Source of the DNA: Candidatus Adlerbacteria bacterium
Lineage (GTDB): Bacteria > Patescibacteriota > Minisyncoccia > Phycocordibacterales > SBAW01
Length of the DNA stretch: 64,000 nucleotides
NCBI GenBank assembly: GCA_903878285.1
Contig: CAIRHB010000002.1
Span: 808 to 64,807 of the forward strand
Direction: 5' to 3'
The position numbers were made by a program, and so were the translations under genes. Position 1 is the stretch's first letter, and each line of letters begins with the position of its first letter. The notes beneath the pieces are model-generated. The model had not been told where the DNA came from. It saw only the letters and a list, made by a program, of their open reading frames with translations, and did no database searches. Positions 5,729 through 29,353 of this stretch are shown piece by piece.

Positions 5729-5742
5729 AATTTAGTATACAA

Positions 5743-6321
5743 TTACTCCCAACCCAAATCCTTCAAGGATCTTACATTCCTATTATTTCTCTCATTTTCA
5801 GAAGTAAGACCAGTCAAAATAGTGTATCCGTGATTATCAGAACTACCTACGTCTTCAAATGTCTTTTTATCAACAAAGTAAACTTGGACACCGTTTTCGA
5901 TCATTGCATCGAGCGCAGAAGCATATCGAACTTCAGACAATGGTTTTACCGATTTTCGACTTGTCCATTCTTTATCACCCATTCCTTTGTGAGGGTCATA
6001 CTCAAAGGTGTCACTTGGGAAAGCGTACATTGAACCTCCTTTGTCGTTTTTTATAAATTCTTCCCTGTCTGAATTAATAACGACGACTGGTATATCTCCA
6101 TAAAATCCTATGTGCATCCAATGATCCCCATGCCCCTCGACAAGAAAAGCGGAAGCAAAAGCTTTGTTGGGGGTGGAAAAAATTACAGCACCTTCGCCCT
6201 CATCTCGATAATTTCCCTTATTCGGAACAAACTCTGCGATACCAGCAGTTCTAGAAGCATGGTACAAAAATTCTGGTTTTTTCTTTTTCTCTTTGCTCGT
6301 TAGTCTTTCGAAGTTTTCCAT
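5743..6321 (-). CDS. Hypothetical protein (first gene of the low-GC island)
   Basis: 192-aa ORF where the sequence becomes AT-rich. No motif I can name. Confidence 0.4.
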   Translation of the reverse strand: MENFERLTSKEKKKKPEFLYHASRTAGIAEFVPNKGNYRDEGEGAVIFSTPNKAFASAFLVEGHGDHWMHIGFYGDIPVVVINSDREEFIKNDKGGSMYAFPSDTFEYDPHKGMGDKEWTSRKSVKPLSEVRYASALDAMIENGVQVYFVDKKTFEDVGSSDNHGYTILTGLTSENERNNRNVRSLKDLGWE

Positions 6322-6849
6322 ACATCTTTTATTGTTTGAACGCTCTTCAAAACCATTGGCGGGCTACTCGGGATTCAACTGAATGGTGCAAGACCCCGTA
6401 AGGATATTCTAGCGCGAAAAGCACCACACCGCTAAGGCTCTCGGGTCGGGGCTCTAGTTTTTGAAATGAGACAAATGAGACACTTTTTCGCGTTTTTTTT
6501 GGAAGTGTCCCAAAACACCAAAATGTTCATATTTTACTTATCCACAGGTTTAGTCTCTTGCAAAAAAACCGCTTTCGTCTATGGTAGGTATAGGGTCATT
6601 GCAAACGTATTGGGCTTCAGCCACCCATTTGTTTATTTTGAACGTAAATGCTTAGAACTTAGGACTGTGTCGTCACCCAGACGATATTGAAGATTAGAGC
6701 AGCGAACCAAAATAATACCGAATCACTCCGCATGGCGGGATGGTTTTGTGTTATTTCGGCTCGCCCCAAAAACGAAAGAAGCACAACCACCCTACACATG
6801 GGTGGTTTGTTGCATAGCGACCCTGCCATTACAAGGTAGGAACTAGAGT

Positions 6850-8181
6850 ATGGAAACACAAAAAAGTTTGAAGATCGAGTATGTAGCAGTGGATGTTCTT
6901 CGTGCGGCAGACTACAACCCGCGCAAGTGGGACAAAGAGGCGGCGCAACACCTCCGTGAGAGTATCACTCGTTTTGGCGTGGTAGACCCACTACTGGTGA
7001 ATAGTGCGCTTGAGCGAAAAAACATTGTCATCGGTGGACACTTCCGTCTATGCGTACTTAAAGAGATGGGCGTGACTGAAGTGCCCGTGGTGTATGTGTC
7101 TGTTCCTGATATAGAACGAGAAAAAGAACTCAACATACGTCTCAATCGAAACGTCGGCGAATTCGACTGGGATTTGCTCGCCACCTTCGACGAGGCATTT
7201 CTGTCAGATGTCGGATTCTCCAGCGAGGAGCTTGACGGCATATTTGCCCCCGATGAGCAGGAGGAAGTATTTGACCTTAAGAAAGAATTGGACAAGCTCA
7301 AAATTGATTCGATCGATATACAAAAGGGAGACATGTATCAGCTTGGACAGCATCGCCTCATGTGCGGCGATAGCACCATCGAGTCGGATATGTTGACACT
7401 TATGGGCGACGAGAGAGCAGACATGTGCTTCACGGATCCGCCGTACATACTCGACTACTTACACGGCAAGACACGCCATGGCGAGGCAACCACTGGATTC
7501 GGCGCAAAGAAGAACCGTCGGTATCTTGAGACAGAATCCCTGCCTAATGATTTCAGTGACCTGTGGATGGCAAATATCGCCAAGGTACAAAAGGCAGACT
7601 TTTCCATCATTATATTCGAGCACCCAAAGAATCTGCGCACCATCTGGAACGCAGTGGAGAAACATTGGAAATACCGCAACACTATTGTCTGGCATGTGCC
7701 CAATCGCGTACAGGGATTCTCCTCAAAGTACAAGTTCTTCAACAAGCACGATATAGCCCTCGTGGGTACTACTCCAGAGTTTGAGCTGCCAAACACTGCA
7801 CCAGAAGATGACGCGCTCTTTCAAACAGAGTACGAGAACGCGCTATTTGCCACGGCAGGCAAACCGCAGTGGGAGGGCTATGAGAAAGGCAAGAAGTATC
7901 AACCGACCGATTTTATCGAGCACGTGGCCGCAGACGAGAAATCATCGGGTCAAGGCATTATCTTTGGCACGAAACCCCTTGAGCTCCTGATACCATACAT
8001 AAAAGTGCTTACCAAACGCGGCAATCTCATTGTTGAACCGTTTGGCGGTAGCGGCTCTACCCTGATTGCCGCGCACAAAATGGATCGGCGGTGCTTCTTG
8101 ATGGAGAAATCTCCTGTGTATGCAGAGGTTATTAAGAATCGCTGGGAGACACTCACTGGGCAAAAAGCACATAAGATATGA
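6850..8181 (+). CDS. ParB-like nuclease domain fused to DNA N6/N4 methyltransferase (phage-type ParB-MTase), copy A
   Basis: The N-terminus has ParB motifs (YNPRK, IVIGGHFRL). The C-terminus has an FTDPPY catalytic motif and an FGGSGST AdoMet-binding motif. Confidence 0.85.
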   Translation: METQKSLKIEYVAVDVLRAADYNPRKWDKEAAQHLRESITRFGVVDPLLVNSALERKNIVIGGHFRLCVLKEMGVTEVPVVYVSVPDIEREKELNIRLNRNVGEFDWDLLATFDEAFLSDVGFSSEELDGIFAPDEQEEVFDLKKELDKLKIDSIDIQKGDMYQLGQHRLMCGDSTIESDMLTLMGDERADMCFTDPPYILDYLHGKTRHGEATTGFGAKKNRRYLETESLPNDFSDLWMANIAKVQKADFSIIIFEHPKNLRTIWNAVEKHWKYRNTIVWHVPNRVQGFSSKYKFFNKHDIALVGTTPEFELPNTAPEDDALFQTEYENALFATAGKPQWEGYEKGKKYQPTDFIEHVAADEKSSGQGIIFGTKPLELLIPYIKVLTKRGNLIVEPFGGSGSTLIAAHKMDRRCFLMEKSPVYAEVIKNRWETLTGQKAHKI

Positions 8182-8182
8182 C

Positions 8183-8563
8183 ATGGCAGCAACACCCAAT
8201 ACACCAACCATACTCGATGAGCAACAACGGGAACAAAAGACTCTGATTATAGAGACGCTCAAAGTAAAACCAGTAGTCCAGACCGCATGCATAAAAGCGG
8301 GCATTGTTCGAGCTACCTACTACCGATGGATGAAAACGGATCGTGCGTTTGCAAAAGATGTTTGTGGTGCAATTAAAGAAGGTAATGACTTGATTAACGA
8401 TATGGCAGAATCAAAATTGTTCGATGGGATTAAGGAGGGCAAGATGAGCGCGATACGGTACCGGCTGGATCACAAGCATCCAAAGTACAAAAAGAAGCTC
8501 GTGCAAAAACGAAAGCGCAAAGACCCGCCGCAGAAAAAGATGGTGATATTGATTAAAGAGTAA
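8183..8563 (+). CDS. Terminase small subunit-like HTH protein, copy A
   Basis: HTH followed by a W/K-rich tail (VRATYYRWMKTDRAF...). It is a paralogue of the gene that directly precedes terminase large in module B. I took the start at the ATG that abuts the MTase stop. Confidence 0.55.
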   Translation: MAATPNTPTILDEQQREQKTLIIETLKVKPVVQTACIKAGIVRATYYRWMKTDRAFAKDVCGAIKEGNDLINDMAESKLFDGIKEGKMSAIRYRLDHKHPKYKKKLVQKRKRKDPPQKKMVILIKE

Positions 8564-8600
8564 AATACTATCCCCAAACGAATATATCTTCGAGCATGAT

Positions 8601-9011
8601 TCAATTGTTTGGAGTGAGTTCTTGAATGAAGAATCGTCCAAATTCTCTATTTAGATTCGTCATCCAGTCAGCGGCTTCTATGTTTTGATCCAATTCCCTA
8701 AACTTACGACTATCATAATCTTTTTGAAAGTGGAAGGCGCCGTTTCTGTACATTTTTAAGGAATGGATGTTTTCTTCTTCTAGAAGCAATGAGTCGATAT
8801 TCGCATCATTTAACTTTAATTCTTGCCATCCCTCTATAACTGTATACAAAAGCGCATACCATAAAGACATGTACATGAATGTCTCAATATCGTACTTTAC
8901 CTCATCAATATTATCCTTATTCGCTAAGAGGTCGAAAAAATGCTTGCGCATCTTATTCGCCCAGAAATAATATCGGTGCAAGGATACAAGTGATTCCCTA
9001 TTCTTCGACAT
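8601..9011 (-). CDS. Hypothetical protein with HEPN-like Rx4H motif
   Basis: 136 aa, predicted helical, with RNGAFH (R-x4-H) in the C-terminal half, which is the hallmark of HEPN RNase domains. Low GC. Confidence 0.4.
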   Translation of the reverse strand: MSKNRESLVSLHRYYFWANKMRKHFFDLLANKDNIDEVKYDIETFMYMSLWYALLYTVIEGWQELKLNDANIDSLLLEEENIHSLKMYRNGAFHFQKDYDSRKFRELDQNIEAADWMTNLNREFGRFFIQELTPNN

Positions 9012-9479
9012 CTAGAGATTGTTCCCTGAAGCGACACCGTACTGGGCTGTTATTAGCTTATGAAACTCGGAGAGAGTGCTGCATTTTGTGCTACTTACAT
9101 AGCACACACCCACACTGTCCCCAGCGTTATACATAGCATAGATGTCTGAAGTGTTTACATCCCAGACAGTTTCTTCATAGTTGTAACCCTCGTAGTTTGC
9201 TTTGTTTGGTACTTGTTGATACACATCTATGTAACATTTCTCTTTTTCAGGATTATAATAGTTTGCATAAAAGGAAATGGCAGATGGTTTTTCTATACTT
9301 TGAGGAAAGAACTTAGCCGCAGCGTCGGCGCATTTTTGTTGCAGGGCAAAATAGTTTACTTGTTCTTGTGTAACAGATGTTGCTACAACTAACTTAGAGA
9401 TTCTATATTGCTGATACAAAACAATACCAACAAGCAGGAAGGTAATTATCCCCAAAAACAGAACAGATTTATTTTTCAT
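9012..9479 (-). CDS. Membrane-anchored hypothetical protein (N-terminal TM helix, Cys-containing extracytoplasmic domain)
   Basis: The start was reset to the MKNKSVLFLGIITFLLVGIVLY signal-anchor. It is immediately upstream of the HEPN-like gene and co-oriented with it. Confidence 0.45.
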   Translation of the reverse strand: MKNKSVLFLGIITFLLVGIVLYQQYRISKLVVATSVTQEQVNYFALQQKCADAAAKFFPQSIEKPSAISFYANYYNPEKEKCYIDVYQQVPNKANYEGYNYEETVWDVNTSDIYAMYNAGDSVGVCYVSSTKCSTLSEFHKLITAQYGVASGNNL

Positions 9480-9858
9480 ACGCACTCTACTAGGATTTAG
9501 TGCGACGGAGTAAGCCTCTGGGCGACCAAAGAACTCCTGGCCATCGCGACCCGACCTTTCGGCCGAGCCCATACCCGTTTCCAGATATGACCTAGTAGAG
9601 TGACTCTGACCAGGAGTCCTTTAATCTCTACTAGGATTTGCAACCATACCTTGGGGATTTTAAGACCCAAGGGTTAGGCCGGCTTTTATTAAGTTGTACA
9701 CAACCATGATAGCGCTTTTAGGGCTATCGTCCAAGTACTTTAACTTACTTCTGGAGAATTGCGAAGAGGTAACCAACAGGTCTTTTTTGATCGCTTAAGT
9801 TACCAACATCTTGGGTGCTCGGGACGCTCTGGACTCCTGAGGCAGTCTGCGTCATTCC

Positions 9859-11193
9859 TTGTGGTGTATGACCAACACAACACAAGTGCCAGCGGGGACA
9901 CTGGCTCGGGCGGCGCAAGTCCCAATACCAGTAAAGTATTGTTTGTATGCTCGCAAGAGCACAGAGTCCGAGGAGCGGCAGGTGCTCTCCATCGACTCGC
10001 AAATCAAGGAGATGCTTCAGCTCGCCGAGCGTGAAGGACTCCAGATTGTCGCTATGAAACGCGAGTCGCACTCGGCGAAGGAGACGGGTCAGCGTCCCAT
10101 ATTCAACGAGATTGTCGAGGAGATAAAGGGCGGCAAATACAACGGCATCCTCACTTGGGCACCCGACCGCATCAGCCGCAATGCAGGCGACCTCGGCAAG
10201 ATAGTAGATCTCATGGACGCGGGTGGATTACAAGAGATACGCACCTACAGCCAAAGCTTCCGCAATAATCCGAACGAGAAGTTTTTACTGATGATACTCG
10301 GGAGCCAAGCAAAGCTCGAGAACGACAATCGCGGTATTAATGTAAAACGTGGTCTGCGCACCAGAGTGGAGATGGGGCTGTGGCCGACGACCCCACCGAC
10401 TGGCTACCTGACACAGAAGAATATGGAGAAAAAATGTCAGGTTATCATCGACCCAGAGCGTAGCCCCATCGTGCGTAAGATGTTCGAGAAAATGGCGTAT
10501 GAACATTGGTCGGGGCGCAAGATACATCACTGGCTCAAGTTCGAGCTGAACTTCAAGACGGTGGGTAACAAAAATCTCGCGCTCAGCAACATCTTCCGAA
10601 CGCTACAGAACCCCTTCTACTACGGAGTATTCGAGTACCCGAAAGCATCTGGAAACTGGTATACCGGCAAGCATGAACCACTGATAACCAAGGAGCTGTT
10701 CGAGCTTGTACAGACACAACTCAAGCGGGACAACATCACCCGACAAAGCCACGAGTTCGCTTTCACCAAACTCATTGTCTGCGGCAAGTGTGGATCATGC
10801 GTGAGTGCCGAGGAAAAGTACAAACCGCGCAAGGATGGGACCACGATACGATACGTCTACTACGGATGTGGCAGATCAAAAGACCATCACTGCAAAGGTA
10901 ACAAATACTTGCGCGAGGAAGATCTGGTCGAGCAACTGCTTGGCGTGCTTGATCAAATCGACCTCAACGTGCTCGGTGTACAGATAAAGTTCAAAGATGA
11001 GCTCAAGCGGCACAACAAATTCCAGCGCACGGTACTGGGACTATCAAACCCATCTGCCGAGCACGAAGATATCGACCTCAAGACCTATGCCAAATACATT
11101 CTCAAGGAGGGTACCATGGAGGAAAAGCGTGAACTGATGGGGTGCTTCAAGACAAAGCTCAAGATCACAGAGGGTGTTGTAACTATCGGCTAG
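9859..11193 (+). CDS. Large serine recombinase (phage-integrase type), copy A
   Basis: N-terminal resolvase catalytic domain (YARKST..SIDSQ), recombinase domain, and a Cys-rich zinc ribbon (CGKCGS...C..C). Length 444 aa. Confidence 0.9.
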   Translation: MWCMTNTTQVPAGTLARAAQVPIPVKYCLYARKSTESEERQVLSIDSQIKEMLQLAEREGLQIVAMKRESHSAKETGQRPIFNEIVEEIKGGKYNGILTWAPDRISRNAGDLGKIVDLMDAGGLQEIRTYSQSFRNNPNEKFLLMILGSQAKLENDNRGINVKRGLRTRVEMGLWPTTPPTGYLTQKNMEKKCQVIIDPERSPIVRKMFEKMAYEHWSGRKIHHWLKFELNFKTVGNKNLALSNIFRTLQNPFYYGVFEYPKASGNWYTGKHEPLITKELFELVQTQLKRDNITRQSHEFAFTKLIVCGKCGSCVSAEEKYKPRKDGTTIRYVYYGCGRSKDHHCKGNKYLREEDLVEQLLGVLDQIDLNVLGVQIKFKDELKRHNKFQRTVLGLSNPSAEHEDIDLKTYAKYILKEGTMEEKRELMGCFKTKLKITEGVVTIG

Positions 11194-11204
11194 GGTTGTG
11201 CGTA

Positions 11205-11897
11205 CTAAACCAATCCTAACTTCTCAAATGGATAATGTTTCTCGTCTGGCGTCGACATTACCTCAATCGTCGATTTACCAGATCTTTTCAGACGAAGCAC
11301 CCGCCGTTTTGGATGCCTCAGACACTCTTGCGCGAGATCAAAAGTTGCAACAAGATCAACGGTCGGATAGATTTGCGCCATTGAGTACATCTCTTTTGCA
11401 GGATCGGATTTGCCAATTATTATTATCGGAGCATGAGTTGCCAGATTTTTCTCAGCGAGCGCTTTCTGCAGTTCTGCATATGGCGGCACCAAAATCGGCC
11501 TATGCACGTGGCATAAAATAGTCGTTTGATCGTCATATGATTTCTTGCGAGCAAGCTTAGTATTCATCAGAAAGTCGATCAGATTGGTTTCAGAAGTATG
11601 TTCGTCGAATGTTACAACTTCGACATCTTGAACCGCAAAATCGTTGTCTCGAATCTTCTTCTCGTAGCAGCCGGTCCGCACATCAGGGCTTCCTTCATCG
11701 TCGCTGACGAGCTGCATCCAGAATTCTCTGTTGAGAGTTTTCATGATGCCCATAAGTGAAATAGCTACAATATAGCATTCAGCCGCTTTTCGGTAGATTT
11801 CGCTGCCGGGTACTATTTTGCGTTGTCGCTCCAACTCTCTGAAGTGATGGATGACGTTTAATGGCGGGAACCAAAGGTTGTCAGCGAGAAATATCAT
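11205..11897 (-). CDS. Hypothetical protein (island cargo)
   Basis: 230-aa low-GC ORF convergent with the recombinase stop. No recognisable motif. Confidence 0.4.
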   Translation of the reverse strand: MIFLADNLWFPPLNVIHHFRELERQRKIVPGSEIYRKAAECYIVAISLMGIMKTLNREFWMQLVSDDEGSPDVRTGCYEKKIRDNDFAVQDVEVVTFDEHTSETNLIDFLMNTKLARKKSYDDQTTILCHVHRPILVPPYAELQKALAEKNLATHAPIIIIGKSDPAKEMYSMAQIYPTVDLVATFDLAQECLRHPKRRVLRLKRSGKSTIEVMSTPDEKHYPFEKLGLV

Positions 11898-12036
11898 ACA
11901 CGCTAATAATAAGCTCTCGGGTCTGTCCGATACAAAAGTCTGCGGGCGGGCCGTCTTGAGCTAGAACCGTGGTCGGTCAAGCCCTGTTTGACGGAATAGC
12001 TACATTTTACACTATTGAAACGACGCATCTCGAGCG

Positions 12037-12252
12037 CTATGCCTTTCGCCACTGATCAGGTTTTCCTTTGTTTGTATGACGAACGCGCTCTACATCCGGG
12101 CGCACGTCCGGAAACATCTTTTGTGCTTTTGCAATTGCCTTCGCTTGCGTAGGCGCAGTCGCAGAAGCTCGTTTTGAATGCTCCTGGCGAACGGCATAAT
12201 CGCCCTCGGGCCGCTTCTCTATGTAGATATCTGGTCCTTTCTTCTTACCCAT
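12037..12252 (-). CDS. DUF2188-like small protein
   Basis: 71 aa. The pattern (YAVRQEHSKRASATAPTQAKAIAKAQ) resembles the DUF2188 / YjzC-like family. Recalled from memory. Confidence 0.5.
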   Translation of the reverse strand: MGKKKGPDIYIEKRPEGDYAVRQEHSKRASATAPTQAKAIAKAQKMFPDVRPDVERVRHTNKGKPDQWRKA

Positions 12253-12320
12253 ACCCTAAGTGTATCAAATAGTGACAAAAGTGACACGGGAATGAGAATG
12301 GGTTGTGTCACTTTGTCGAT

Positions 12321-13319
12321 TCAACTTAAAAATTCCTCTGGAACCGGATTTGTCATAAAGAATGTGTACGGCGCCCATTTCGCACGGGCAGGCTTGATCT
12401 CTTGGAACTGTTTATTACCAACCCGTTGGTATGAACTAAGAATCTTTTTCGACTTAAGATTCCCATATATATAATTATTTGAGAATCCCATGGTGTTGGA
12501 ATTGATGTAATCGATTTTCTTCTCCGATGTGATCTCAAATTTTGATTTCGAGAGCGGGAGGTCCCGCAACAATAGACCTATTCTGGGGCTGAGAGGAAGA
12601 AATATTGTGCCGTTTCCTAATCCGGCGTTATATATTGGAGGAATATAGGTCGGACGGTAAATCGATATCGGATTATCTGACGTAACGAACACTTTCCAAG
12701 TCGGGTTGATTACGAGGTGCCAGTGCTTACTCCTGTAATACCCGTCTGCAAGCTCCATCGAGAGCTCAATACCCTGAGCCAGAAAGAATGCTCGCGCCTC
12801 TTTAAATTCGACAGAATATTCTTTATTTAGGACGAATTGTCGATGCTCTTCCAACTCTTTTGCGTTCAAGATTATGCCAGCTTCTTCGCTTTGTTTCTTA
12901 AAAACACTTTTATCCATGGCATTCATGGCCATGAATTCTTTCATACCCTCGGCGCGAATAGCTTCCATTGCTTTCACAAAGCCCGGCGTTCTAACTGCAA
13001 GCAATGCAATGAACACGGCGATCATCTGCTTTTGATCATCGTCGCAATTTATTTCCTCGGTACGAATAATATCTTTAATCGCTGCGCCGACCTTTCCCTC
13101 AATCATGGTGTGAAATTCATCAATATCTCTACTCGTCGTTGAATCCTTTTTGTTCGTGAAAGTATAAAAATCTTTCTCGGCAGCAATATCTTTAATGGCT
13201 GCTGGCACAATACTTTCTTGTGAATACTGAAAGATGTGGGGAGTGTAAGGGTTTTTATCAGACGAGAATGCATCCAAGTAGAATTGTGGTACGTAGTGGT
13301 CCTTTGGTTTTCCTGCCAT
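12321..13319 (-). CDS. DUF4238-like protein
   Basis: The N-terminal HYVPQFYLDAF matches, as I recall it, the signature start of the DUF4238 family. 332 aa, low GC. Confidence 0.55.
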   Translation of the reverse strand: MAGKPKDHYVPQFYLDAFSSDKNPYTPHIFQYSQESIVPAAIKDIAAEKDFYTFTNKKDSTTSRDIDEFHTMIEGKVGAAIKDIIRTEEINCDDDQKQMIAVFIALLAVRTPGFVKAMEAIRAEGMKEFMAMNAMDKSVFKKQSEEAGIILNAKELEEHRQFVLNKEYSVEFKEARAFFLAQGIELSMELADGYYRSKHWHLVINPTWKVFVTSDNPISIYRPTYIPPIYNAGLGNGTIFLPLSPRIGLLLRDLPLSKSKFEITSEKKIDYINSNTMGFSNNYIYGNLKSKKILSSYQRVGNKQFQEIKPARAKWAPYTFFMTNPVPEEFLS

Positions 13320-13454
13320 AGCGCTTTTTATAATACCCCTATGTGCAAGAATGGCGAGTTGACTTAAGAACGTAGGTTAGATTCTGAGACTCGCCGACCG
13401 CCCCTGTACTGCCTTTTGACGCTATTTATTAAATAGCCCAGCGATCGGCAAGTC

Positions 13455-13640
13455 TCAAAACCCATTAATCGCCTCAACTCTCTGTCTATTTAGATACTTA
13501 ATAATGTCGTTTTTATCGAAACGGACACTACCCCCAACCTTAATGAATGGGAGCTGTCGCCCTTGCTGCAGGCGTCGCACTGATGTCGGAGATACCTTTA
13601 AAAACTCAGCGACCTCGTTTATGGTCAATAGTTCTAGCAT
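13455..13640 (-). CDS. Excisionase/AlpA-family helix-turn-helix DNA-binding protein
   Basis: 61 aa with a TINEVAEFLKVSPTSVRRL...GGSVRF pattern typical of the excisionase-family DNA-binding domain. Confidence 0.7.
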   Translation of the reverse strand: MLELLTINEVAEFLKVSPTSVRRLQQGRQLPFIKVGGSVRFDKNDIIKYLNRQRVEAINGF

Positions 13641-13651
13641 AAAAGATAGGG

Positions 13652-15428: not shown

Positions 15429-15455
15429 ACCCGCAATCCTAGCAAAAAAGCAGCT

Positions 15456-17187: not shown

Positions 17188-17349
17188 AACGGCGTACAAT
17201 GAACGCACAACTGAATATTACTGGTGGTGCCTCGCAACTTGTTGCCACGCCCACTTCGTAGAGAAAGCCTTTGAGAATCACCCGTTGATTCCCTGAGACT
17301 TCCCCGCGAAGTGGGCTTTCTCGTTATTTATCAAGTAACGAAGAAAATT

Positions 17350-21883: not shown

Positions 21884-24181
21884 CTAGAGAGATTTTAGTC
21901 GCGTTAAAACCTCTTCCGTGTTGCCCGTGTGAACCAAGAAAAAGTGCAATTTGCCTTTACCAAGCTTTGCCCACACATTTGCAATTTCAACTTTGTATGC
22001 AGTATCGTCGTTACTGATACGATCTTCACCTTTCCACTCGAGAGCAACAATGCTGCCCTTCTTTGTGACAGCAACGAAATCGGGATAAAATTTTCCCTTG
22101 CGCCATCCTTGAATATAAAACGGATCGACTTTCTCACGGTTGCGGACCCAGAACTCGATGTTGTCCAAAATGCCGAGGTCGATACGCTCAACGAAGCCAC
22201 GTTCCTCGCCATTGATAGCGTCTATCCTTTCGTAGAGGTTCTTGTTAAATACCTTAGCCACTGGTGATTTAAGCGTGATAGTTGGTGGGTATGAATCGAA
22301 AGCATCTACTGAGAGTTTCTTTTTTGAAATGAGGCCCGTAAAAACCTTTTTGGTGTATGCCTCAAGTACTTCAGTAATAACTACAGAAAGTCGATCGGCC
22401 AATAAATATCTATTTACCGAGAGTTCAGGAAGTGAGCGTTTGTGTTTCTTAATTTGGGTCTGTACTGCTTTCTCAATAAATCCGACCTTGTCGTCAGGAC
22501 TGACCATTGGAAATCGCAGTTTCTTATCGAGCCATGATATCAACTCATCGGTGGAATGGTCGCCATCGAGATACTGGTACGGGAGTGAAAGTTGCTTACC
22601 TTGTAACCACTCGTCGTCTTCCGTGATGTCGATAGTGGCTTGTCCGTCTAGGTCGTAGTGAATCTTGAACCCAAAATCAGCGTCCTGTTTTGCGAGTTCA
22701 AAATCTTCACCCAAAAGATCTTCAAACGCGAGCTTATCTTTTCCGAACGTCATCATCGGGACTTTGAGATCTTTCTTGATTGCTTTCTTTGCCTCCATCG
22801 GATCGGCGTATTCTTTCTCATCAGTCGCACCTACAAAATCAGCCCTGCTGTAACCGTTGTCTTCAAGGCCTTTGATCACACGACTCGCTGCATCATTAAA
22901 ATTTGGGGCTGACGCAAATACATAGCTACGATTGAGTGCCTCGTCTGTTTTTCGTTTTGCATTAGGCATGCGGATAACACGGCCGATGATTTGTTCAACT
23001 GCAACTTTCGCACCTAAGTTGGCAACAGAAATAAGTACATAGGCATACGAACAATCCCAACCCTCGGAGAGAGCGTTCACGGTAAGTATGTACCGAACTT
23101 CACATTTCTTATCGAACAAATCGATCCCATCAAGCTCATCCACTTCAGAGGTTTTAATCTTAATCTGGCTTTCAGGAATTTTTCTATCCAAAAGCAGCTT
23201 CTTTAATTGTTCTACGGTGACAGTTGTACGCACCTTGCTCTTCGGTTGGGCCTGAAGTAGGGCGATTGGGCGAATGCGTTCGCCTTTTAGCTTTCCTGCT
23301 CGCTTCTCAAGTTCCTCACGCTTCATCAGACCATCTGCGACGACCTGCTCCCATTGTGATCGGCTCTCAAGCACGATTGGGATTTTGACCATGTCTTCGA
23401 GCTTGAGTTCAGCAGCGCCGATCTTCACGAGCACATTACTCCCGTCACGAGGAGTAGCGGTAAATTCAATGATGAAAGAAGGCTTGAGATCTGAGAGGAA
23501 TCGAATAGAGAGATCGGTCTGCGTGTGATGTCCCTCGTCGATGACGATAAGCGGATTATTCTTGCGGATCACATTGGCGAGCGAGTTCACGACCGTGCCA
23601 GCGTCGTCTTTTTCTAGCATCGACTCGTCTTTAAGATTTTGGAAGTGATCCATGAGAGACCCGTTCTCTTTGTAGACTTTGTACTTCTTTTGAATTGAGG
23701 AGTCTTTGCGGAACGCATCGAGGCTGGCCACAATGATGCAGAGATTATTGCGTACATCTTCCGGCGTAATGGTGAGCGCCTCTTCGTTCGAGAAAATCTT
23801 AAACTTGGTATCGAATGACTCGTTGAGCATCTCGTAGTGCCAGTCCTTTGCATCACGGAATTTCTTTAGGGTCTGTGTCTTGATCGAGTCTGACGGCACG
23901 AACCACATCACAATTCCGGTATCCATTTTATGCTGGAGCGAAATGCTCATGATGCGCTCAACTGCTTTGCAGCCGACAAGCGTCTTACCGCCACCAGTTG
24001 GAATACGGATACACACAAACGGCACATCCCCAAACCACTCGTGGTTGTACTTTGGCCAGTCGTGACCGTACTTCTCCTCGGTGATCTCAGTAAAGGCATA
24101 GCGCGGCTTCAGCTTCTTGGACAACTCCAAAAATTGGCTGAGAGTATCTATGGCACTTTCCTGATAGCGCTTTAGTTTCAT
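21884..24181 (-). CDS. Type III restriction enzyme Res subunit
   Basis: SF2 helicase motifs (PTGGGKT, VIDEGHH) and a C-terminal endonuclease region. It is located directly downstream of mod. Confidence 0.85.
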   Translation of the reverse strand: MKLKRYQESAIDTLSQFLELSKKLKPRYAFTEITEEKYGHDWPKYNHEWFGDVPFVCIRIPTGGGKTLVGCKAVERIMSISLQHKMDTGIVMWFVPSDSIKTQTLKKFRDAKDWHYEMLNESFDTKFKIFSNEEALTITPEDVRNNLCIIVASLDAFRKDSSIQKKYKVYKENGSLMDHFQNLKDESMLEKDDAGTVVNSLANVIRKNNPLIVIDEGHHTQTDLSIRFLSDLKPSFIIEFTATPRDGSNVLVKIGAAELKLEDMVKIPIVLESRSQWEQVVADGLMKREELEKRAGKLKGERIRPIALLQAQPKSKVRTTVTVEQLKKLLLDRKIPESQIKIKTSEVDELDGIDLFDKKCEVRYILTVNALSEGWDCSYAYVLISVANLGAKVAVEQIIGRVIRMPNAKRKTDEALNRSYVFASAPNFNDAASRVIKGLEDNGYSRADFVGATDEKEYADPMEAKKAIKKDLKVPMMTFGKDKLAFEDLLGEDFELAKQDADFGFKIHYDLDGQATIDITEDDEWLQGKQLSLPYQYLDGDHSTDELISWLDKKLRFPMVSPDDKVGFIEKAVQTQIKKHKRSLPELSVNRYLLADRLSVVITEVLEAYTKKVFTGLISKKKLSVDAFDSYPPTITLKSPVAKVFNKNLYERIDAINGEERGFVERIDLGILDNIEFWVRNREKVDPFYIQGWRKGKFYPDFVAVTKKGSIVALEWKGEDRISNDDTAYKVEIANVWAKLGKGKLHFFLVHTGNTEEVLTRLKSL

Positions 24182-24187
24182 AAATAT

Positions 24188-25879
24188 TTAGTAGACCTTA
24201 ATTTCGTACGGAATCTGCTTGAAGGTGATTCCTTTTTCTTTCAGCTCATCCTCGTCAATGAGACAGCGATCGGCGTAGATGACAGCCGTGCCACTTACCT
24301 TGAGCTTTGATAGCGCCGCGCGAGTGAGGTCGTTTTTGTTTTTGCCGGAATAGATGAGGTAGTACGAAGTGCCGTGATTTTCGCCGATCATCGGCGGCTT
24401 CACGGCTTTTTTGTCGATGTTGGTATGAGTCTCGGTGAAATAAATATAGCTGGCCAATTGATCGTAAGAGCAGGTCTCATCAATCTGTCCTTTTTCGTCG
24501 AAGAGAGGTTTTGCCAGCTCACAGAACTCAAAATCAGATTTGTAATCGTATTTACTTATCATGCTTTTCACTCGAGTAGCCGTAATTGGCATGGCCACAG
24601 AATCTTCCATTTCTACAAGGATAAATTTTCTGCTGCCACCGTCCTCTTTATTTAAATCCAAGACTGCGTGTGCTGTTGTGCCGGAACCTGCAAATGAATC
24701 AAGCACCATATCATTTTTACCTGTTCCGATTTTTACAATGTACTTGATAAGGTCTTTTGGTTTCGGGTACTGAAAACTTATTTTCATGCTCTCTAGTTCG
24801 GACCGCATCTTCTCAGTGGTACTGAAATTTCTAAGCACGGACACGATGTGACTCACATTATTGCCTCGATCTTTGCGGTAATAAATAACCCCATTTTCAC
24901 TTATGTAAAAACTTAACTTCATTCCGTCGCCATCGTTTATAGGTTCGCATTTATTCTCAATGAATGATCGCAGTTTGTTGGCATTAGCCCAGCCAGAAAA
25001 CACCTTACATGGTTTCTTAAGCTTGCCCATCTCGACGGTGAGAGGATTGATTCTTAGAGGAAATTGTACTTTTCCATATTTAGCCTTGAGTTGATTGCTG
25101 GTCAGATCACTTGCTTTCATTTGCTCGATCAGGCCACGCGGGATATCACTGGCAGGCAAAGATAATTTCTCGACAGTACAAGGAAATCCTGCTGGAAGCT
25201 CTATCTCGCTCGGAGGATTCCCCGGACCATTTTTGGTAATTGAATTTTCTGCAAAACCCGCCCAGAGATTGCTTTCTTCTCGAGTGTTTGGGTCTATTAC
25301 ATTTCCGAGAGCCATTTTTGGTCTTGCGGCAGAATACATAACGATGTACTCATGGTTAACTTTCACATGGAATTGATTGTCCGTATGGCCATCAGTATTC
25401 CAGACGAATTGTGCTACAAAATTATTCTTACCAAAAATCTCGTCCATTAAATACCTCAATGATTGGACTTCGTTATCATCAATACTTACGAATATCACAC
25501 CGTCTTCCGATAGAAGGCGTTTTAGTAAATTAAGTCTCGGATACATCATGCAGAGCCATTTGTCGTGACGAGTTAGATCCTCCGATTCAGGACCGACAAC
25601 GCTACCGATCCACTCTTTAATTTTGGGAGAATTAACCTTGTCGTTGTAGACCCACTTTTGTTTCCCTGTGTTGTATGGAGGATCGATATAAATGCACTTG
25701 ATTTTCCCTTGGTAGAAGGGCATCAGGGCCTTTAAGGCTTCGAGATTGTCACCGTGGATGATGAGATTTTCGGACGATTTGCCGACAGACGCACCCGAGA
25801 CTTTTTCAAGGAGCTTAAATGGCACCTCCTTGTCGTGGTTTACTACTGCGTCTTTGCCGATCCAATTTAGAGTTGCCAT
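24188..25879 (-). CDS. Type III restriction-modification Mod subunit (N6-adenine DNA methyltransferase)
   Basis: IDPPYN catalytic motif and FAGSGTT AdoMet motif. It forms an operon with res. Confidence 0.85.
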   Translation of the reverse strand: MATLNWIGKDAVVNHDKEVPFKLLEKVSGASVGKSSENLIIHGDNLEALKALMPFYQGKIKCIYIDPPYNTGKQKWVYNDKVNSPKIKEWIGSVVGPESEDLTRHDKWLCMMYPRLNLLKRLLSEDGVIFVSIDDNEVQSLRYLMDEIFGKNNFVAQFVWNTDGHTDNQFHVKVNHEYIVMYSAARPKMALGNVIDPNTREESNLWAGFAENSITKNGPGNPPSEIELPAGFPCTVEKLSLPASDIPRGLIEQMKASDLTSNQLKAKYGKVQFPLRINPLTVEMGKLKKPCKVFSGWANANKLRSFIENKCEPINDGDGMKLSFYISENGVIYYRKDRGNNVSHIVSVLRNFSTTEKMRSELESMKISFQYPKPKDLIKYIVKIGTGKNDMVLDSFAGSGTTAHAVLDLNKEDGGSRKFILVEMEDSVAMPITATRVKSMISKYDYKSDFEFCELAKPLFDEKGQIDETCSYDQLASYIYFTETHTNIDKKAVKPPMIGENHGTSYYLIYSGKNKNDLTRAALSKLKVSGTAVIYADRCLIDEDELKEKGITFKQIPYEIKVY

Positions 25880-25880
25880 A

Positions 25881-26126
25881 TTATTCGGTGCTCGTTTGCT
25901 TTAAAAAATTTTCAAATTCACTGCGGTCTATCCGAAACTCCTTACCAATTTTGTGTGCTTTAAGTCGTTTCGCCTTGATGTAGCGGTAAATGGTCATGAC
26001 GTTCAGACTCAACTTCTCGGCTAGATCGTGCGCCGTGTAGAACTCTTTTTCGTCTTTCTCCATACTTTTATGATACTTTACTTTTGTTGACATTACAACA
26101 CTCGAAGGAATACAATGTGGATGCAA
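25881..26126 (-). CDS. Excisionase-family HTH DNA-binding protein (possible R-M controller)
   Basis: The MTIYRYIKAKRLKAHKIGKEFRI motif matches the excisionase-family DNA-binding domain. The true start is probably an internal Met. It abuts the mod start. Confidence 0.6.
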   Translation of the reverse strand: MHPHCIPSSVVMSTKVKYHKSMEKDEKEFYTAHDLAEKLSLNVMTIYRYIKAKRLKAHKIGKEFRIDRSEFENFLKQTSTE

Positions 26127-26127: not shown

Positions 26128-29100
26128 ATGACTGATCTTAAGAAACATTACGTCAAATTCAAAGAGTCACTCTCAGACGTTAGAATCATAACCGCGAACC
26201 TCTTGGTATTGATCAAGACAGCCTTTTTGAGTGTCCTGAGCGCCGAAATATGGCGTTTCTCAACCGCCCTCACGGGAAAAGTAAATATATGGATTGCAGC
26301 CAATGGCTATGAGTGGTGGGCAATATGGCTTTGCGTTGCGGCCACGATATTGGTCATCGCATATCTCATAATTCGAGGTGTCTTCACAGATATAAAAAAG
26401 ATATTCAAGAGTTACCGTGCCGACGTTCTTCTTGCTCTCTGCTTCGGCATATGGGTCAGCGTGGCATGGGGCGGTTTCTTGACGGGGTGGGATACAAAGG
26501 TCATTGCTTCGCTGAATTTGAAACAGATATGTACTCTCATAGTTGGACCATTTCTTTTGGGCGTCTTGGTGATGGCACGTCAATTGTTCCACACGACCGA
26601 TAAAACCGTTTCGTCGCTCGTCGTTGATAAGGAGCTAAGAGGAAAAGAGAACGATCTCCTAAACTTTGCATCAAAAGCAGATGCGTTCGCGGAGAGAGTA
26701 TTCAACGACGGTTCGCCAGAAAGTTTCGTATTCGGCGTAGATGCACCTTGGGGTATAGGCAAATCAACATTCATAAATTTCTGTACTGAATATTGGGAGA
26801 AAGAGCATGCGGAAAAAATTGTCGTCTACAAATTCAGCCCGCTTCAATACCTTGGCGCAGACAATCTGCTCGAGGTTTTCATCGATGGGTTAATCCATGC
26901 AATTCAGAAAGATTCGTTCATTCCGGAAATAAAACCTTTGATTTCTCGATACGCACGATTACTTAAGGAGATAAAGCACTTCTCAATATTTGGACTCACG
27001 CTTCCAACATTCATGACGGATTACAGTGCAGAGGAAGCCTGCGATGATTTGAGCGCAGTATTGAAACGTTTTCCTAAGAAGGTCATAGTCATTATTGATG
27101 ATCTCGACCGTATCAACTTTGCTGAGATAAAAGATATTCTGTTTGTGATACGAAAGAGTTTTGCGTTTCCAAACGTGTCCTACGTCATCTGCTATGACAC
27201 AGACAATATCGGGGTACTAGAAGCGGAAACGCCGGAAATAGATAAGGTTGGTGAGTTTTTGGAGAAATTTGTGAACATAAAAATCAGCCTCTATTTAGAG
27301 AGAGAAGACCTAGCGAAGTTTGTCTCCGAAAACCTTGAAAAGACGCTGCCAGCCAGCCTCCTCGTTGACCCATTGCCAATGCGCCAAGCTGTCGGAGGAC
27401 TACTCGATATATATAAATCGACTACATACCACCGCTATTTACCATTCATAGGAGATGTGAGGAAGTTAAAACGACTCATCAATACAGTCCTAATGTTCGA
27501 TTTGCAGAAGACGGACTTCAAGAACAGTGACTTCGATAAGCGAGATCTGGTGAATCTGTTGCTGATCTATATTCATTATCCGAATATCTTTAGGAAGATC
27601 TATGACACCGAGACAAAAGGCGGTCGTGGTTTCTTTTCACTTGTGTTGCCGCATGAAGATGGCTACCCCGAAGATGCGTCGGGACAAAGGCGTTCTTCTT
27701 TCAGCGATTCTACGTACAAGAACTCCACTTATTTTACGGAGTACATGAAGCAATTCCCTGAGGACAGTCATCAGCGCTTCCTTTTGAATCAGGTATTTAA
27801 TGTCGATGTAAGACTGAAAATGACTAGTACTGGTTTCCCGACGGCAAACGACTACGCCAAGATTGATAGCGTCCCAGAAGACGTACGTACATCACTCGCC
27901 TGTTTCAATGGTGGTTGGACCAATGGTAGAAACCTCGAGACATATTTGGATCTGATAGTAAATCTCTCGAAGCCCGTAGATATTGGCCAGCACAGGTTCT
28001 ATATGACATGGAGAGAAGCCATTATCAACAAGACAAAAACTCTTACTGAGGCTTTTGCCGATCCAAAATTTGCATACGTAGAGGGCGAATACCCAAGAGA
28101 GAGGTTGTGGCGAATATTGGTAAACAACGCCCGAGAACTGCAAAGCGATATTGCCGCTGATATTATTTCTCATCTTTTGGACACGATTCCGGACTATTCA
28201 CTGATTGAATTTCAAGAAGAAAATACGGGTAGCGGAATGAGACACAGCATGGACTATTTTTTGACCAGACTGCTGAATGATGCGGGGTGGACGGACAAAC
28301 AGGGTAAACATTCGGGCAATATGGAGCCATATATTAACGAGATTGCCGAATGGATTTTTGGAGATGGCCGACACGAAGGAAAGGGGGTGATATCGAGACT
28401 ATCCGACGCTACACGAGGTGTATTAGGAATCTACGACCTTATGGTGTTCCGGCTTACGTGTAGCAGTGATCGTGGTGGAGATATCTTCGACCTTTCCAGA
28501 GCACTGGCACAACATGCGAATAAAGATGCGCCGACACAGGGAGACACTCGTGTCATTGCCCGTGAGGAAATGCGTGAAATATCACAGAAGGTATTTGAAA
28601 TCTTCAATGCAAGATACATCGTCCCGAAGAAAAATATTTTTGCCGAAATTGATGCGTTGAAAACTGGAGATCTCGCTGGCAAATACAACGAATACATCAC
28701 TAAAAAGGTGGCGGACGGCGTATTTCAGGTAAGTGATATCGAAAAGAAAACTTCAGAACTTAAAACACGCATTGGTTCTTTTGTTCTGTACCAGTTAGCA
28801 AATGCCGAAATCAATCTTGGAGCAGGATGTGGGTTCTATGATCCGATGGGCAAAGAAGACAAACATCAAATTAGAGACCTCGTAAATGATTACATATTCT
28901 CTTGTTTCGATCCGTCTGACAAAAAGAATACTGAGTATTTCATTGATTATCTTTTTAGAAACTTTGCGAATGCCATTGCTTCAGCCAGAGAAGACGGAGA
29001 TCAATACATTCCGAGTATAAATGAGTTTACGAAGGTTTTGGATGCAAAGAAACTTGCAACGTTTTGGCAAAAGCATGGAGTAGCCTACAAAGCTCTTAAG

Positions 29101-29265
29101 CTCGAGGAGAGTAGCAAGGTCGTCATGATAGGTAAAGACGAGGCCTCATACAAGAAGTACGTGCCAATGGTATACAAAGTGTTAGATGAAAACGTGACGA
29201 CGGTTTCATCGGCTGACACATCAAAAGCGGAAACCCCGGTAGCCGATCCTGCATCCCAAGAATAA
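26128..29265 (+). CDS. KAP-family P-loop NTPase with N-terminal transmembrane domain (Tmn-like)
   Basis: Four N-terminal TM helices. KAP Walker A is GVDAPWGIGKSTF and Walker B is VIVIIDDLDR. 1045 aa, low GC. Confidence 0.85.
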   Translation: MTDLKKHYVKFKESLSDVRIITANLLVLIKTAFLSVLSAEIWRFSTALTGKVNIWIAANGYEWWAIWLCVAATILVIAYLIIRGVFTDIKKIFKSYRADVLLALCFGIWVSVAWGGFLTGWDTKVIASLNLKQICTLIVGPFLLGVLVMARQLFHTTDKTVSSLVVDKELRGKENDLLNFASKADAFAERVFNDGSPESFVFGVDAPWGIGKSTFINFCTEYWEKEHAEKIVVYKFSPLQYLGADNLLEVFIDGLIHAIQKDSFIPEIKPLISRYARLLKEIKHFSIFGLTLPTFMTDYSAEEACDDLSAVLKRFPKKVIVIIDDLDRINFAEIKDILFVIRKSFAFPNVSYVICYDTDNIGVLEAETPEIDKVGEFLEKFVNIKISLYLEREDLAKFVSENLEKTLPASLLVDPLPMRQAVGGLLDIYKSTTYHRYLPFIGDVRKLKRLINTVLMFDLQKTDFKNSDFDKRDLVNLLLIYIHYPNIFRKIYDTETKGGRGFFSLVLPHEDGYPEDASGQRRSSFSDSTYKNSTYFTEYMKQFPEDSHQRFLLNQVFNVDVRLKMTSTGFPTANDYAKIDSVPEDVRTSLACFNGGWTNGRNLETYLDLIVNLSKPVDIGQHRFYMTWREAIINKTKTLTEAFADPKFAYVEGEYPRERLWRILVNNARELQSDIAADIISHLLDTIPDYSLIEFQEENTGSGMRHSMDYFLTRLLNDAGWTDKQGKHSGNMEPYINEIAEWIFGDGRHEGKGVISRLSDATRGVLGIYDLMVFRLTCSSDRGGDIFDLSRALAQHANKDAPTQGDTRVIAREEMREISQKVFEIFNARYIVPKKNIFAEIDALKTGDLAGKYNEYITKKVADGVFQVSDIEKKTSELKTRIGSFVLYQLANAEINLGAGCGFYDPMGKEDKHQIRDLVNDYIFSCFDPSDKKNTEYFIDYLFRNFANAIASAREDGDQYIPSINEFTKVLDAKKLATFWQKHGVAYKALKLEESSKVVMIGKDEASYKKYVPMVYKVLDENVTTVSSADTSKAETPVADPASQE

Positions 29266-29353
29266 TCAAACCTAAGTTTCTGCGCCTCAGTGTCATCAGT
29301 TTTCTGATGTGAAAAATTCCTTGTAAACACTAGCCTCTTGAGCTAGCTCGACT

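Follow-up and report, generated by a model that had tools for sequence, protein, structure and literature searches.

The window, the whole stretch of 64,000 nucleotides analysed here, contains a low-GC island beside a tRNA-Ser(GCU) gene, with a GC content of 0.46 between 5.7 and 29.35 kb (0.396-0.47 along 5743-29346) compared to 0.54 in both flanks. The initial annotation had described a foreign, AT-rich island ending at tRNA-Ser, and this is borne out by the composition and by the tRNA 3′ end, which faces the island. Direct repeats of this 3′ end, for which a search had been suggested, did not appear, as no second copy is present anywhere in the window. The host belongs to the Paceibacterota (CPR), and recombinase homologues are named Paceibacterota as well; the neighbouring RluB-type pseudouridine synthase shares 83% identity with its counterpart in a Candidatus Adlerbacteria MAG and 68% with the one in Kaiserbacteria. 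The island consists of two co-oriented modules, A and B, each encoding a ParB_N-methyltransferase, a TerS-like protein and a large serine recombinase, with a TerL in B only. The features, in order, are:

5743..6321, minus strand: 192-aa ORF, GC 0.40, the lowest in the island; match to DUF6886 weak and sub-threshold
6437..6447, plus strand: left GCTCTCGGGTC, 11-nt repeat, putative attL core of A; longest stretch shared exactly by both junction regions
6850..8181, plus strand: ParB_N + N6/N4 DNA methyltransferase, core gene of A; DPPY motif present
8120..8563, plus strand: TerS-like HTH protein, core gene of A; terminase small subunit PHROGs, E 1e-5
8601..9572, minus strand: two cargo ORFs between TerS and recombinase of A; no family matches
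9548..9680, minus strand: LOOT RNA (Rfam RF03000); 78.8 bits, gathering threshold 46.4
9859..11193, plus strand: large serine recombinase A; Resolvase + Recombinase + Zn_ribbon_recom
11205..11897, minus strand: 230-aa cargo ORF of A; no database matches
11913..11941, plus strand: right junction of A; second GCTCTCGGGTC, then tgtCCGATACaaaagtct
11942..12039, plus strand: left-end block of B (about 95 nt); 11-nt repeat TCTTGAGCTAG at 11954-11964
12037..16379, minus strand: left cargo of B; DUF2188 (71 aa), DUF4238 (332 aa), HTH, then proteins of 188, 392 and 307 aa
16837..17187, plus strand: 116-aa ORF upstream of the ParB-methyltransferase; conserved in B-type elements
17311..18633, plus strand: ParB_N + N6/N4 DNA methyltransferase, core gene of B; profile match
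18630..19040, plus strand: TerS, core gene of B; phrog_4044, E 2e-11
18991..20475, plus strand: TerL; phrog_38, E 7e-84
20555..21880, plus strand: large serine recombinase B; Resolvase + Recombinase + zinc ribbon
21884..26126, minus strand: type III restriction-modification operon; HTH 25881-26126, Mod 24188-25879, Res 21884-24181
26128..29265, plus strand: KAP-family P-loop NTPase (PifA/QatA-like), 1045 aa; profile match
29276..29353, plus strand: right-end block of B; second TCTTGAGCTAG at 29336-29346, palindrome GAGCTAGCTC
29354..29443, minus strand: tRNA-Ser(GCU), 3′ end facing the island; integration landmark

Gene coordinates and profile matches confirmed the two-module arrangement that had been proposed, including the restriction of TerL to module B; a TerL remnant was looked for in module A and none is left. 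The identities first estimated between the modules were too high, as the two recombinases are 58% identical rather than 65-70% and the two ParB-methyltransferases 32% rather than about 45%, while the TerS proteins share 44% identity over 77 aa. The view that these are two related, separately acquired elements and not a recent duplication is supported. Both recombinases carry PF00239, PF07508 and PF13408 above cut-offs, the full serine integrase domain set, and identity to phage integrases in INPHARED is 30% at most. The expectation that portal, capsid and tail genes would be missing is supported by profile searches of the window, in which no ORF matched a structural phage family in Pfam or PHROG. 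Profile searches of the island ORFs also revealed no primase/replicase, no replication module and no clear induction regulator.

The module borders implied earlier near 11194-11210, 17.3 kb and 21881 give way to others drawn from terminal repeats and conserved end blocks. On these grounds element A lies at about 6.44-11.92 kb, with a repeat of a length reached in only 12 of 2000 shuffles. By this border the 192-aa ORF at 5743..6321 falls outside element A and may thus be a remnant of older date or cargo on the left-hand side. The tgtCCGATACaaaagtct string (GGGTC..CCGATAC) at the right junction also precedes the tRNA-Ser 3′ end in relatives of the recombinase A clade. A GAGACA/GAGACAC repeat motif follows the left GCTCTCGGGTC at 6466-6520 and has, by eye, a counterpart at the left end of B. 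Like element A, several relatives lack TerL.

Element B spans about 11.95-29.35 kb and not 17.3-29.35 kb, as indicated by its repeat and conserved end block, so that its core module lies mid-element with cargo on both sides. The left- and right-end blocks are 98% and 89% identical, respectively, to blocks in a related locus, L004, in which two matching positions carry the exact TCTTGAGCTAG repeat found at both ends of B; this conservation is retained even though synonymous sites relative to L004 are near saturation (dS 0.9-1.4). The left-end block is also present in L007, L128 and L164, and occurs solo in L079, L071 and L023. Given its two copies in L164 and its solo occurrences, its role may differ from that of an att half-site.

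The cargo was described from the outset as rich in defence genes, and this held for the type III Res and Mod proteins, the KAP NTPase/PifA-like protein and DUF4238. In the restriction-modification operon, Mod and Res (MTase_III, E 4e-146; REase_III, E 7e-93) are encoded on one strand with 6 nt between them. The operon is headed by one of the two excisionase-family/HTH_17 proteins of the island (25881-26126), the other being a 61-aa protein in the left cargo of B (13455-13640). The 307-aa zinc-ribbon protein of B recurs in seven related loci, and the 116-aa ORF at 16837..17187 gave no fold match. In element A, the protein called HEPN-like is a 136-aa ORF (8601-9011) with the Rx4H motif RNGAFH alone, without HMM support, and its 186-aa neighbour has a hydrophobic stretch that by eye resembles a membrane segment. 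The LOOT RNA forms the 5′ leader of these cargo ORFs, divergent from the recombinase gene, and its helices are kept, with 91.8% of cells paired and 37 of 42 pairs covarying across 17 distinct copies.

The same gene order recurs at over 50 independent metagenomic loci, usually with variable cargo (type I, III and IIG restriction-modification, helicases, Abi-like ATPases) and without genes for portal, capsid or tail; ENA and JGI contigs show this order too. Among 57 IMG/VR loci, TerS precedes the recombinase in the same orientation in 43, the ParB-methyltransferase is found in 38 and TerL in 36. The best 120 matches to recombinase B are all at least 73% identical, and the capsid-less order holds even where recombinases are as little as about 45% identical. 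In 35 related loci, the 25 commonest PHROG/Pfam families among 146 cargo-cluster representatives include no virion family, only restriction-modification, helicase, AAA and SNF2, and the smallest relatives have no space for a capsid gene. Near-identical cores (86% nucleotide identity) occur in genomes that differ in flanking genes and cargo. Tandem arrays recur: two recombinase loci are present on each of five IMG/VR contigs, with a core module upstream of both in four of the five, and one locus, L173, has the packaging module without a recombinase within 10 kb. The family core is a strongly conserved, co-oriented set of ParB_N-DNA methyltransferase, often a second methyltransferase, small terminase, usually large terminase and serine recombinase, with variable, mostly leftward genes in three slots: left of the methyltransferase, in the terminase-recombinase gap and in the recombinase-tRNA gap. 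We found no published description of this element family in the literature.

Purifying selection on all four core genes is strong, with dN/dS relative to L004 of 0.025 for the ParB-methyltransferase, 0.013 for TerS, 0.031 for TerL and 0.013 for the recombinase. TerL homologues with as little as 48% identity keep Walker A, Walker B and the aspartates of the RNase-H-like nuclease without variation. At about 50% identity, the TerL homologues found all lie within this module and none in phages, and TerL is about 27% identical to that of Mu-like phages.

At 15 loci the recombinase is followed downstream by the 3′ end of a tRNA gene (Ser, Gln, Asp, Asn or Trp) encoded on the other strand, and in L112, L113 and L151 the tRNA is 110-150 nt beyond the recombinase stop codon. 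Targeting beside a tRNA 3′ end is a habit of tyrosine integrases. The island is identical in all 20+ contigs of the host population, and neither there nor elsewhere in the searches did we find an empty site, an excised circle or an attP junction, so the att sites are placed from repeats and conservation, with two possible crossover positions about 20 nt apart. Likewise, the comparison with empty sites that had been suggested for defining attL and attR yielded no island-free relative. As a prediction from terminal repeats, conserved ends and tRNA adjacency, recombinase-driven integration beside the tRNA is well supported. The circular form would be integrated by the serine recombinase at or just past the tRNA 3′ end, with enzymes of the recombinase A type using a GGGTC site about 20-30 nt downstream of the tRNA and those of the recombinase B type a site within 0-18 nt of the tRNA end. 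This difference in target would allow two different elements to stack without competing for a site.

PLEs, islands specific to Vibrio, integrate into Vibrio cholerae repeats and not next to a tRNA; they have a replication initiator of their own and, to our knowledge, no terminase genes. The island has terminase genes, no replication initiator that we could find, a CPR host and no detectable sequence relationship to PLEs, which are anti-phage satellites with a large serine recombinase for integration and excision (PMC6002521). PICIs are defined by an integrase at one end, a regulation module with an alpA, merR or stl homologue, a primase-replicase module and TerS (PMC10085698). The island has an integrase, which is of the serine type and not always terminal, and TerS PHROG matches in both modules, and it resembles PICIs/SaPIs in being site-specifically integrated, capsid-less, about 5-17 kb per element, equipped with its own TerS and anti-phage cargo, and in tandem with other satellites. 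It differs in the large serine recombinase, in the ParB_N-methyltransferase and usually TerL as core, in its CPR host and in having no recognizable capsid-morphogenesis gene or alpA/stl-type regulator pair; no island ORF matched a primase or replicase family. Beyond TerL, what defines the cfPICIs are genes for capsid, head-tail adaptor and connector (PMC10085698); the likeness here is a TerS and TerL of their own lineage, distinct from known phage terminases, but the window has no capsid, head-tail adaptor or connector genes, and TerL is in element B only. The PICI/PLE-like organization first suggested therefore does not amount to membership in the PICI, cfPICI or PLE class. PICMIs share the tiny gene content, defence cargo, reliance on helper particles and lack of capsid-remodelling genes (PMC10803314), but they sit next to fis with three core proteins for excision and replication (PMC10803314) and have no terminase, ParB-methyltransferase or serine recombinase core. 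Phages of the phiC31/Bxb1/A118 type have a recombinase of identical three-domain architecture and att sites comparable to the putative ones here, with a short common core and imperfect dyad symmetry; the low integrase identity noted above, the tRNA-adjacent target and the missing virion genes set them apart. A complete or defective prophage was also considered, and no portal, major capsid, tail or lysis genes or pseudogene remains were found.

Taken as a whole, the island is best read as two independently acquired members of one Paceibacterota integrative element family, adjacent downstream of tRNA-Ser(GCU) and probably satellite-like, an interpretation in which we have reasonable though not high confidence. 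With neither capsid nor replication genes, the element most likely would spread as a phage satellite, and transfer by packaging into helper-phage capsids is our best mechanistic guess; no helper phage for the family was found in our searches. The element TerS and TerL would recognize element DNA and pump it into procapsids of a helper phage of the CPR host, and the ParB-methyltransferase would pre-methylate this DNA against restriction in the next cell, or aid packaging. The cargo, here type III restriction-modification, the KAP NTPase, DUF4238, the HEPN-like/membrane pair under the LOOT RNA and a three-gene operon, would repay the host by blocking other phages.

Some of these observations could also belong to a device for addiction or phage defence that owes its mobility to the recombinase alone and its transfer to natural competence of the CPR host; its terminase might be a decoy by which phage concatemers are cut or mis-packaged, with a methyltransferase marking self DNA. 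The module travels with defence cargo, neither helper phage nor capsid gene was ever linked to it, the recombinase-less L173 is what a host-beneficial system might look like, and known satellites do interfere with the packaging of their helper phages. Nevertheless, PADLOC gave no defence-model match for TerS or TerL and matches the ParB-methyltransferases to generic methyltransferase models only, TerL is dispensable in many members while TerS is kept, a pattern of packaging-redirecting satellites, and the conserved non-coding ends suit cis-acting transfer or integration sites, making such a device unlikely, if still the alternative that deserves most attention. That A and B form a single composite unit of 23.6 kb moving together would fit the occurrence of both modules, identical in sequence, in every contig of the population and the recurrence of two-module contigs in IMG/VR. 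We consider this improbable, since a B-type left-end block sits between the modules and, in L004 and L128, bounds single-module elements that lack an A-type partner, the core proteins of A and B are only 32-58% identical, the right junction string of A abuts tRNA-Ser in single elements of the recombinase A clade, and L004 approximates the B-only case.

The initial annotation had also offered a decayed prophage pair, in which structural genes were lost from two phages. TerS, TerL and a serine integrase are typical of phages, many relatives are called viral by IMG/VR, and the distant TerL similarity is to Mu-like phages, but a core dN/dS of 0.01-0.03 at a dS near 1 and the invariant catalytic motifs lead us to reject decay, and the capsid-less order recurring in the many loci described above, with no pseudogene fragments of structural genes or TerL, leaves this explanation the least credible. 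Scarcely more probable is a non-mobile chromosomal hotspot for defence islands with a domesticated recombinase, acting as an invertase or cassette shuffler on the blocks of about 95 nt. The island appears fixed and invariant in the sampled population, and the end block, repeated in L164 and flanking single leftward gene sets, is somewhat cassette-like; against this, closely similar cores sit amid different flanks and cargo, relatives adjoin at least five tRNA species, GC is 8 points below the host, the recombinases have the full integrase-type domain set, and no inverted repeats were found bracketing any segment of the island.

The genomes of CPR bacteria measure about 1 Mb, these bacteria are not culturable alone, and we know of almost no characterized mobile elements or phages from them. 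A conserved, abundant family that makes up 2-3% of the host genome and holds most of its recognizable defence genes would explain how these bacteria acquire and exchange immunity. We suggest, tentatively and with less confidence than the satellite reading itself, that these are the first capsid-hijacking elements or phage satellites to be recognized in CPR bacteria, an ancient family with its own TerL lineage and a tRNA-docking serine integrase, stacked through slightly offset att sites, acting as a main vehicle by which defence genes are exchanged and with LOOT as a cargo-operon leader. The lineage-specific terminase points to helper phages that may be searched for in viromes through TerL/portal compatibility or pac-site ends, and the many closely related serine integrases with differing short tRNA-proximal targets offer raw material for studies of specificity change. 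LOOT, an Rfam family previously obtained from metagenomes only, gains a genomic and taxonomic home.

The low-GC island proposed in the initial annotation was confirmed, with a GC content of 0.40-0.47 over 5743-29346 versus 0.54 in both flanks, and its reading as two co-oriented modules, A on the left and B on the right, was upheld by Pfam, PHROG, and PADLOC scans. The principal features are as follows, with RecA and RecB denoting the large serine recombinases of the two elements.

6850-8181: ParB_N and N6_N4 methyltransferase (ParB-MTase), module A
8120-8563: TerS-like HTH protein, module A
9548-9680, minus strand: LOOT RNA (RF03000; Rfam score 78.8 bits, gathering threshold 46.4)
9859-11193: large serine recombinase (RecA), module A
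17311-18633: ParB_N and N6_N4 methyltransferase (ParB-MTase), module B
18630-19040: TerS-like HTH protein, module B
18991-20475: large terminase TerL, module B (phrog_38, E 7e-84)
20555-21880: large serine recombinase (RecB), module B
29354-29443, minus strand, 3′ end towards the island: tRNA-Ser(GCU) (ARAGORN and Rfam)

The by-eye estimates of the similarity between the modules were too high, as RecA and RecB are 58% identical rather than 65-70% and the ParB-MTases 32% rather than about 45%; the two TerS proteins share 44% identity across 77 residues, and a search for a TerL remnant in module A found none. Among the cargo, the type III Mod/Res, KAP/PifA-like NTPase, and DUF4238 assignments were right, and the supposed HEPN-like protein proved to be an RNGAFH motif alone in a 136-aa ORF, without HMM support. 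A 61-aa excisionase-like protein, a candidate directionality factor, is also encoded. This protein and those of 186, 230, 188, 392, and 116 aa had no match in Pfam, PHROGs, PADLOC, NCBIfam, or PDB sequences. The 116-aa protein, encoded at 16837-17187 on the plus strand by an ORF kept 5′ of ParB-MTase in B-type elements, has only 7 homologues among 5.8 billion proteins, and its AlphaFold model (pLDDT 78) gave no fold match in PDB and BFVD searches. A general repeat search over the island returned nothing convincing among its top families, and promoter and terminator counts were not above shuffled expectation.

A direct repeat of the tRNA-Ser 3′ end, which had been suggested as something to search for, has no copy in the window with three mismatches allowed. 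The 11-mer TCTTGAGCTAG has exactly two copies in the island, at 11954-11964 and at 29336-29346, the latter 7 nt off the tRNA end, and is present at both analogous positions in L004, a related metagenomic locus whose element also ends at tRNA-Ser(GCU). The left copy lies within a left-end block (11942-12039, about 95 nt) that carries CGTCTCGAGC boxes and shares 98% identity with its L004 counterpart. For the right-end block of 74 nt the figure is 89%, and the two blocks are conserved beyond what synonymous divergence would allow. With an nhmmer profile, the left block was located 5′ of the core genes in three further related loci (L007, L128, and L164) and as solo copies in three others (L079, L071, and L023). 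Together, the repeats and end blocks suggest that element B extends over about 11.95-29.35 kb (17.4 kb), with the core central and cargo on both sides. Block conservation begins abruptly at GCGG/GCTGG, and a modest dyad in the reconstructed attP of B (TAGCTC-N18-GAGCTA, 12/20 matches, reached by 25-43 of 1000 shuffles) is centred near this start, suggesting that crossover may fall at the extreme 3′ terminus of the tRNA and not inside the 11-mer. About 20 nt separate these models; the predicted attP junction of B falls between CTAGCCTCTTGAGCTAGCTCGACTTG and GCGGGCGGGCCGTCTTGAGCTAGAACC, with the 11-nt core as the alternative, and the predicted attB junction between CCGATACAAAAGTCT and GCGGAGACGG, the corresponding predictions for A lying around GCTCTCGGGTC.

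The left block was rejected as a structured RNA, with zero covariation on both strands, and as a tRNA fragment, its similarity to the 3′ half of the window tRNA-Ser being weak (z 2.2-4.0). L164 contains it twice (2827-2920 and 4522-4617), 1.7 kb apart with leftward genes after each copy, L079 (block at 18556-18651) combines it with one gene and a tRNA-Gln and no recombinase, and L023 has it joined to the final 69 codons of a recombinase (4917-5136). Such repeated or solo blocks could mark boundaries of a cassette-like kind or be what is left of older elements.

At 15 related loci, a tRNA on the strand opposite to the recombinase lies 3′ of that gene, with its own 3′ end towards the element. 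Ser is the commonest species there, with Gln, Asp, Asn, and Trp represented as well, and in the tightest cases 110-150 nt separate the recombinase stop codon from the tRNA. ARAGORN also reported a tRNA-Ser with the unusual anticodon ACT near tRNA-Ser(GCT) in two related Paceibacterota loci (L004 18699-18786 and L126 15926-16013). For element A, the longest exact match between the junction regions is GCTCTCGGGTC (6437-6447 and 11913-11923), a length reached in just 12 of 2000 shuffles, and tgtCCGATACaaaagtct comes after the right copy. In three loci of the RecA clade (L126, L124, and L111), GGGTC-N3/4-CCGATA(C) lies 12-13 nt ahead of the tRNA-Ser 3′ end, and L121 keeps the CCGATA part alone; in the window, the left block of B starts at the expected place of that tRNA end. 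No homologues of the left intergenic region of A were found among relatives, and the GCTCTCGGGTC boundary places the 192-aa gene (GC 0.40) outside A. The simplest history would be an ancestral locus consisting of the 192-aa gene, about 115 nt, GCTCTCGGGTC, 18 nt, and tRNA-Ser, into which A inserted at the GGGTC site and B at or just past the tRNA end. RecA and RecB, at 58% identity, would thus use offset predicted sites, which would explain the stacking of A and B; two recombinase loci on one contig were likewise seen in at least five IMG/VR cases.

The adjoining RluB-type pseudouridine synthase is 83% identical to a Candidatus Adlerbacteria MAG protein versus 54-68% for Kaiserbacteria and other Paceibacterota, similarities that identify the host as a CPR/Patescibacteria bacterium. 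Metagenomic contigs sharing exact proteins with the window, retrieved with the right-flank RluB-type synthase, the left-flank 192-aa ORF, DUF4238, and RecB, were all 100% identical over the island; both modules are present throughout the population sampled, which is clonal. What looked like a variant in L168 and like a truncated recombinase in L096 reflected gene-calling differences only. Pattern scans for an empty site or attP gave six chance matches in metagenomes (core plus tRNA end), none at a tRNA, and no matches in three scans of IMG/VR, and no empty site could be read by synteny from 80 GTDB species representatives with the RluB-type synthase because the tRNA-Ser neighbourhood is not conserved there.

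RecB has thousands of metagenomic relatives; identity is 73% or higher throughout the best 120, and several carry a Paceibacterota label. The recurring order near these relatives is ParB-MTase, TerS, usually TerL, a variable gap, and the recombinase, with a second methyltransferase after ParB-MTase and a second TerL paralogue after TerL as optional extras. On the same strand 5′ of the recombinase, TerS was present in 43 of 57 IMG/VR loci, ParB-MTase in 38, and TerL in 36, many of the loci without a core gene running into contig ends. TerL homologues at only about 51% identity are still within the same module, so the terminase looks like an old part of it rather than a recent capture. Among cultured phages, the closest TerL belongs to Mu-like phages (about 27% identity), and the closest phage integrase is at most 30% identical. 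No description of the element family was found in the literature; it is classed here as an integrative, probably satellite-like defence island. Variations on the order include two tandem TerL paralogues in six loci (L133, L135, L136, L139, L141, and L163), each 44-49% identical to the window TerL, a second, shorter methyltransferase 3′ of ParB-MTase in many relatives, and two convergent recombinase genes with a gap of just 47 nt in L127 (9989-12689). In L173, cargo and, beyond it, housekeeping genes come after an MTase-MTase2-TerS-TerL module (7595-11443; TerL 52% identical), with no recombinase within 10 kb.

The cargo census took in 290 non-core ORFs, of which the window supplied 11 and 35 related loci the remainder. 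They were grouped into 212 clusters, and 146 cluster representatives were scanned, with the most frequent families alone reported. The commonest are type I HsdM/HsdS/HsdR, type III Res, MmeI/Eco57I-type enzymes, helicases, AAA_15/AAA_21, and SNF2, together with a TOTE conflict system; as judged from these families, the cargo is defence. The top 25 PHROG and Pfam cargo families by frequency include no capsid, portal, or tail family, and in the smallest relatives (L112, L113, and L151) the span from methyltransferase to tRNA is too tight for a capsid gene.

Rfam files LOOT as an sRNA, and it is not known to have been reported from outside metagenomes; the main text of the paper reporting it does not discuss it. 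A covariance model built from three copies found 18 copies in 60 sources, and covariation is seen at 37 of 42 base pairs. Beyond the window, LOOT occurs in L004 (9693-9820), L007 (9756-9873), and 14 further loci. In 17 of 17 copies examined, a co-oriented ORF starts near the LOOT 3′ end, at most 45 nt ahead of it or 85 nt past it, and in the window the final helices extend over the start codon at 9572. The ORFs led by LOOT are mostly unrelated to each other, and most copies are oriented divergently to the gene for the recombinase or ParB-MTase; module B has neither cargo between TerL and the recombinase nor LOOT. Given the co-oriented starts and the covariation, LOOT seems to serve as a leader for the cargo operons of the family.

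Integration of the element beside a tRNA by its serine recombinase is well supported, if indirectly. Capsid, portal, tail, lysis, and replication genes are absent from the element, yet TerS and TerL are under strong constraint, so the element is most economically read as a satellite that would package itself into the procapsids of a helper phage, with the ParB-MTase shielding its DNA from restriction on arrival or aiding packaging. Searches for a circular form and for a helper phage found neither, and the main rival to the satellite reading casts the packaging module as a device for defence or addiction in its own right. A decayed prophage, which the initial annotation had offered beside a satellite, is less likely given the constraint on the core, which is 86% identical to L004 in nucleotide sequence: at dS of 0.9-1.4, dN/dS is 0.025 for ParB-MTase, 0.013 for TerS, 0.031 for TerL, and 0.013 for the recombinase. 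The TerL Walker A (FRGSGKST) and Walker B (LIICDDIED) motifs and the nuclease aspartate motifs (IDPA.S and HDDLVDA) likewise show no variation among ten homologues, the most distant at 48% identity, and PDB sequence matches back the ATPase domain. By these measures, the element is not decaying. Also less likely are a single composite element formed by A and B, whose core proteins are just 32-58% identical, and an immobile hotspot, L004 having a 98% identical recombinase amid different flanking genes and cargo.

Among known systems, the element works most like PICI/cfPICI-type satellites and shares a serine integrase with PLE. By the defining features in PMC10085698, it is not a PICI, having neither a primase-replicase nor a capsid-morphogenesis gene, and not a cfPICI, as capsid and connector genes are lacking; it differs from PLE in its host and in possessing terminase genes. 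PICMI satellites are described in PMC10803314.

Further features were noted elsewhere in the window. A tRNA-Ile with anticodon TAT (49306-49378, minus strand) adjoins a low-GC stretch (GC 0.41) containing a 420-aa ORF with a weak HNH match (50048-51310), and this stretch may be another small insertion beside a tRNA. A patch of GC 0.44 at 2254-3785 includes a PemK/MazF-type toxin ORF (3132-3785, minus strand), and an ORF with an IS200-like Y1 transposase domain (45110-45805) adjoins recG. About 4 kb right of the island, in housekeeping surroundings, a 936-aa VirD4/TraG/HerA-like ATPase (DUF8128; 33172-35982, minus strand) is kept in all contigs of the window's population.
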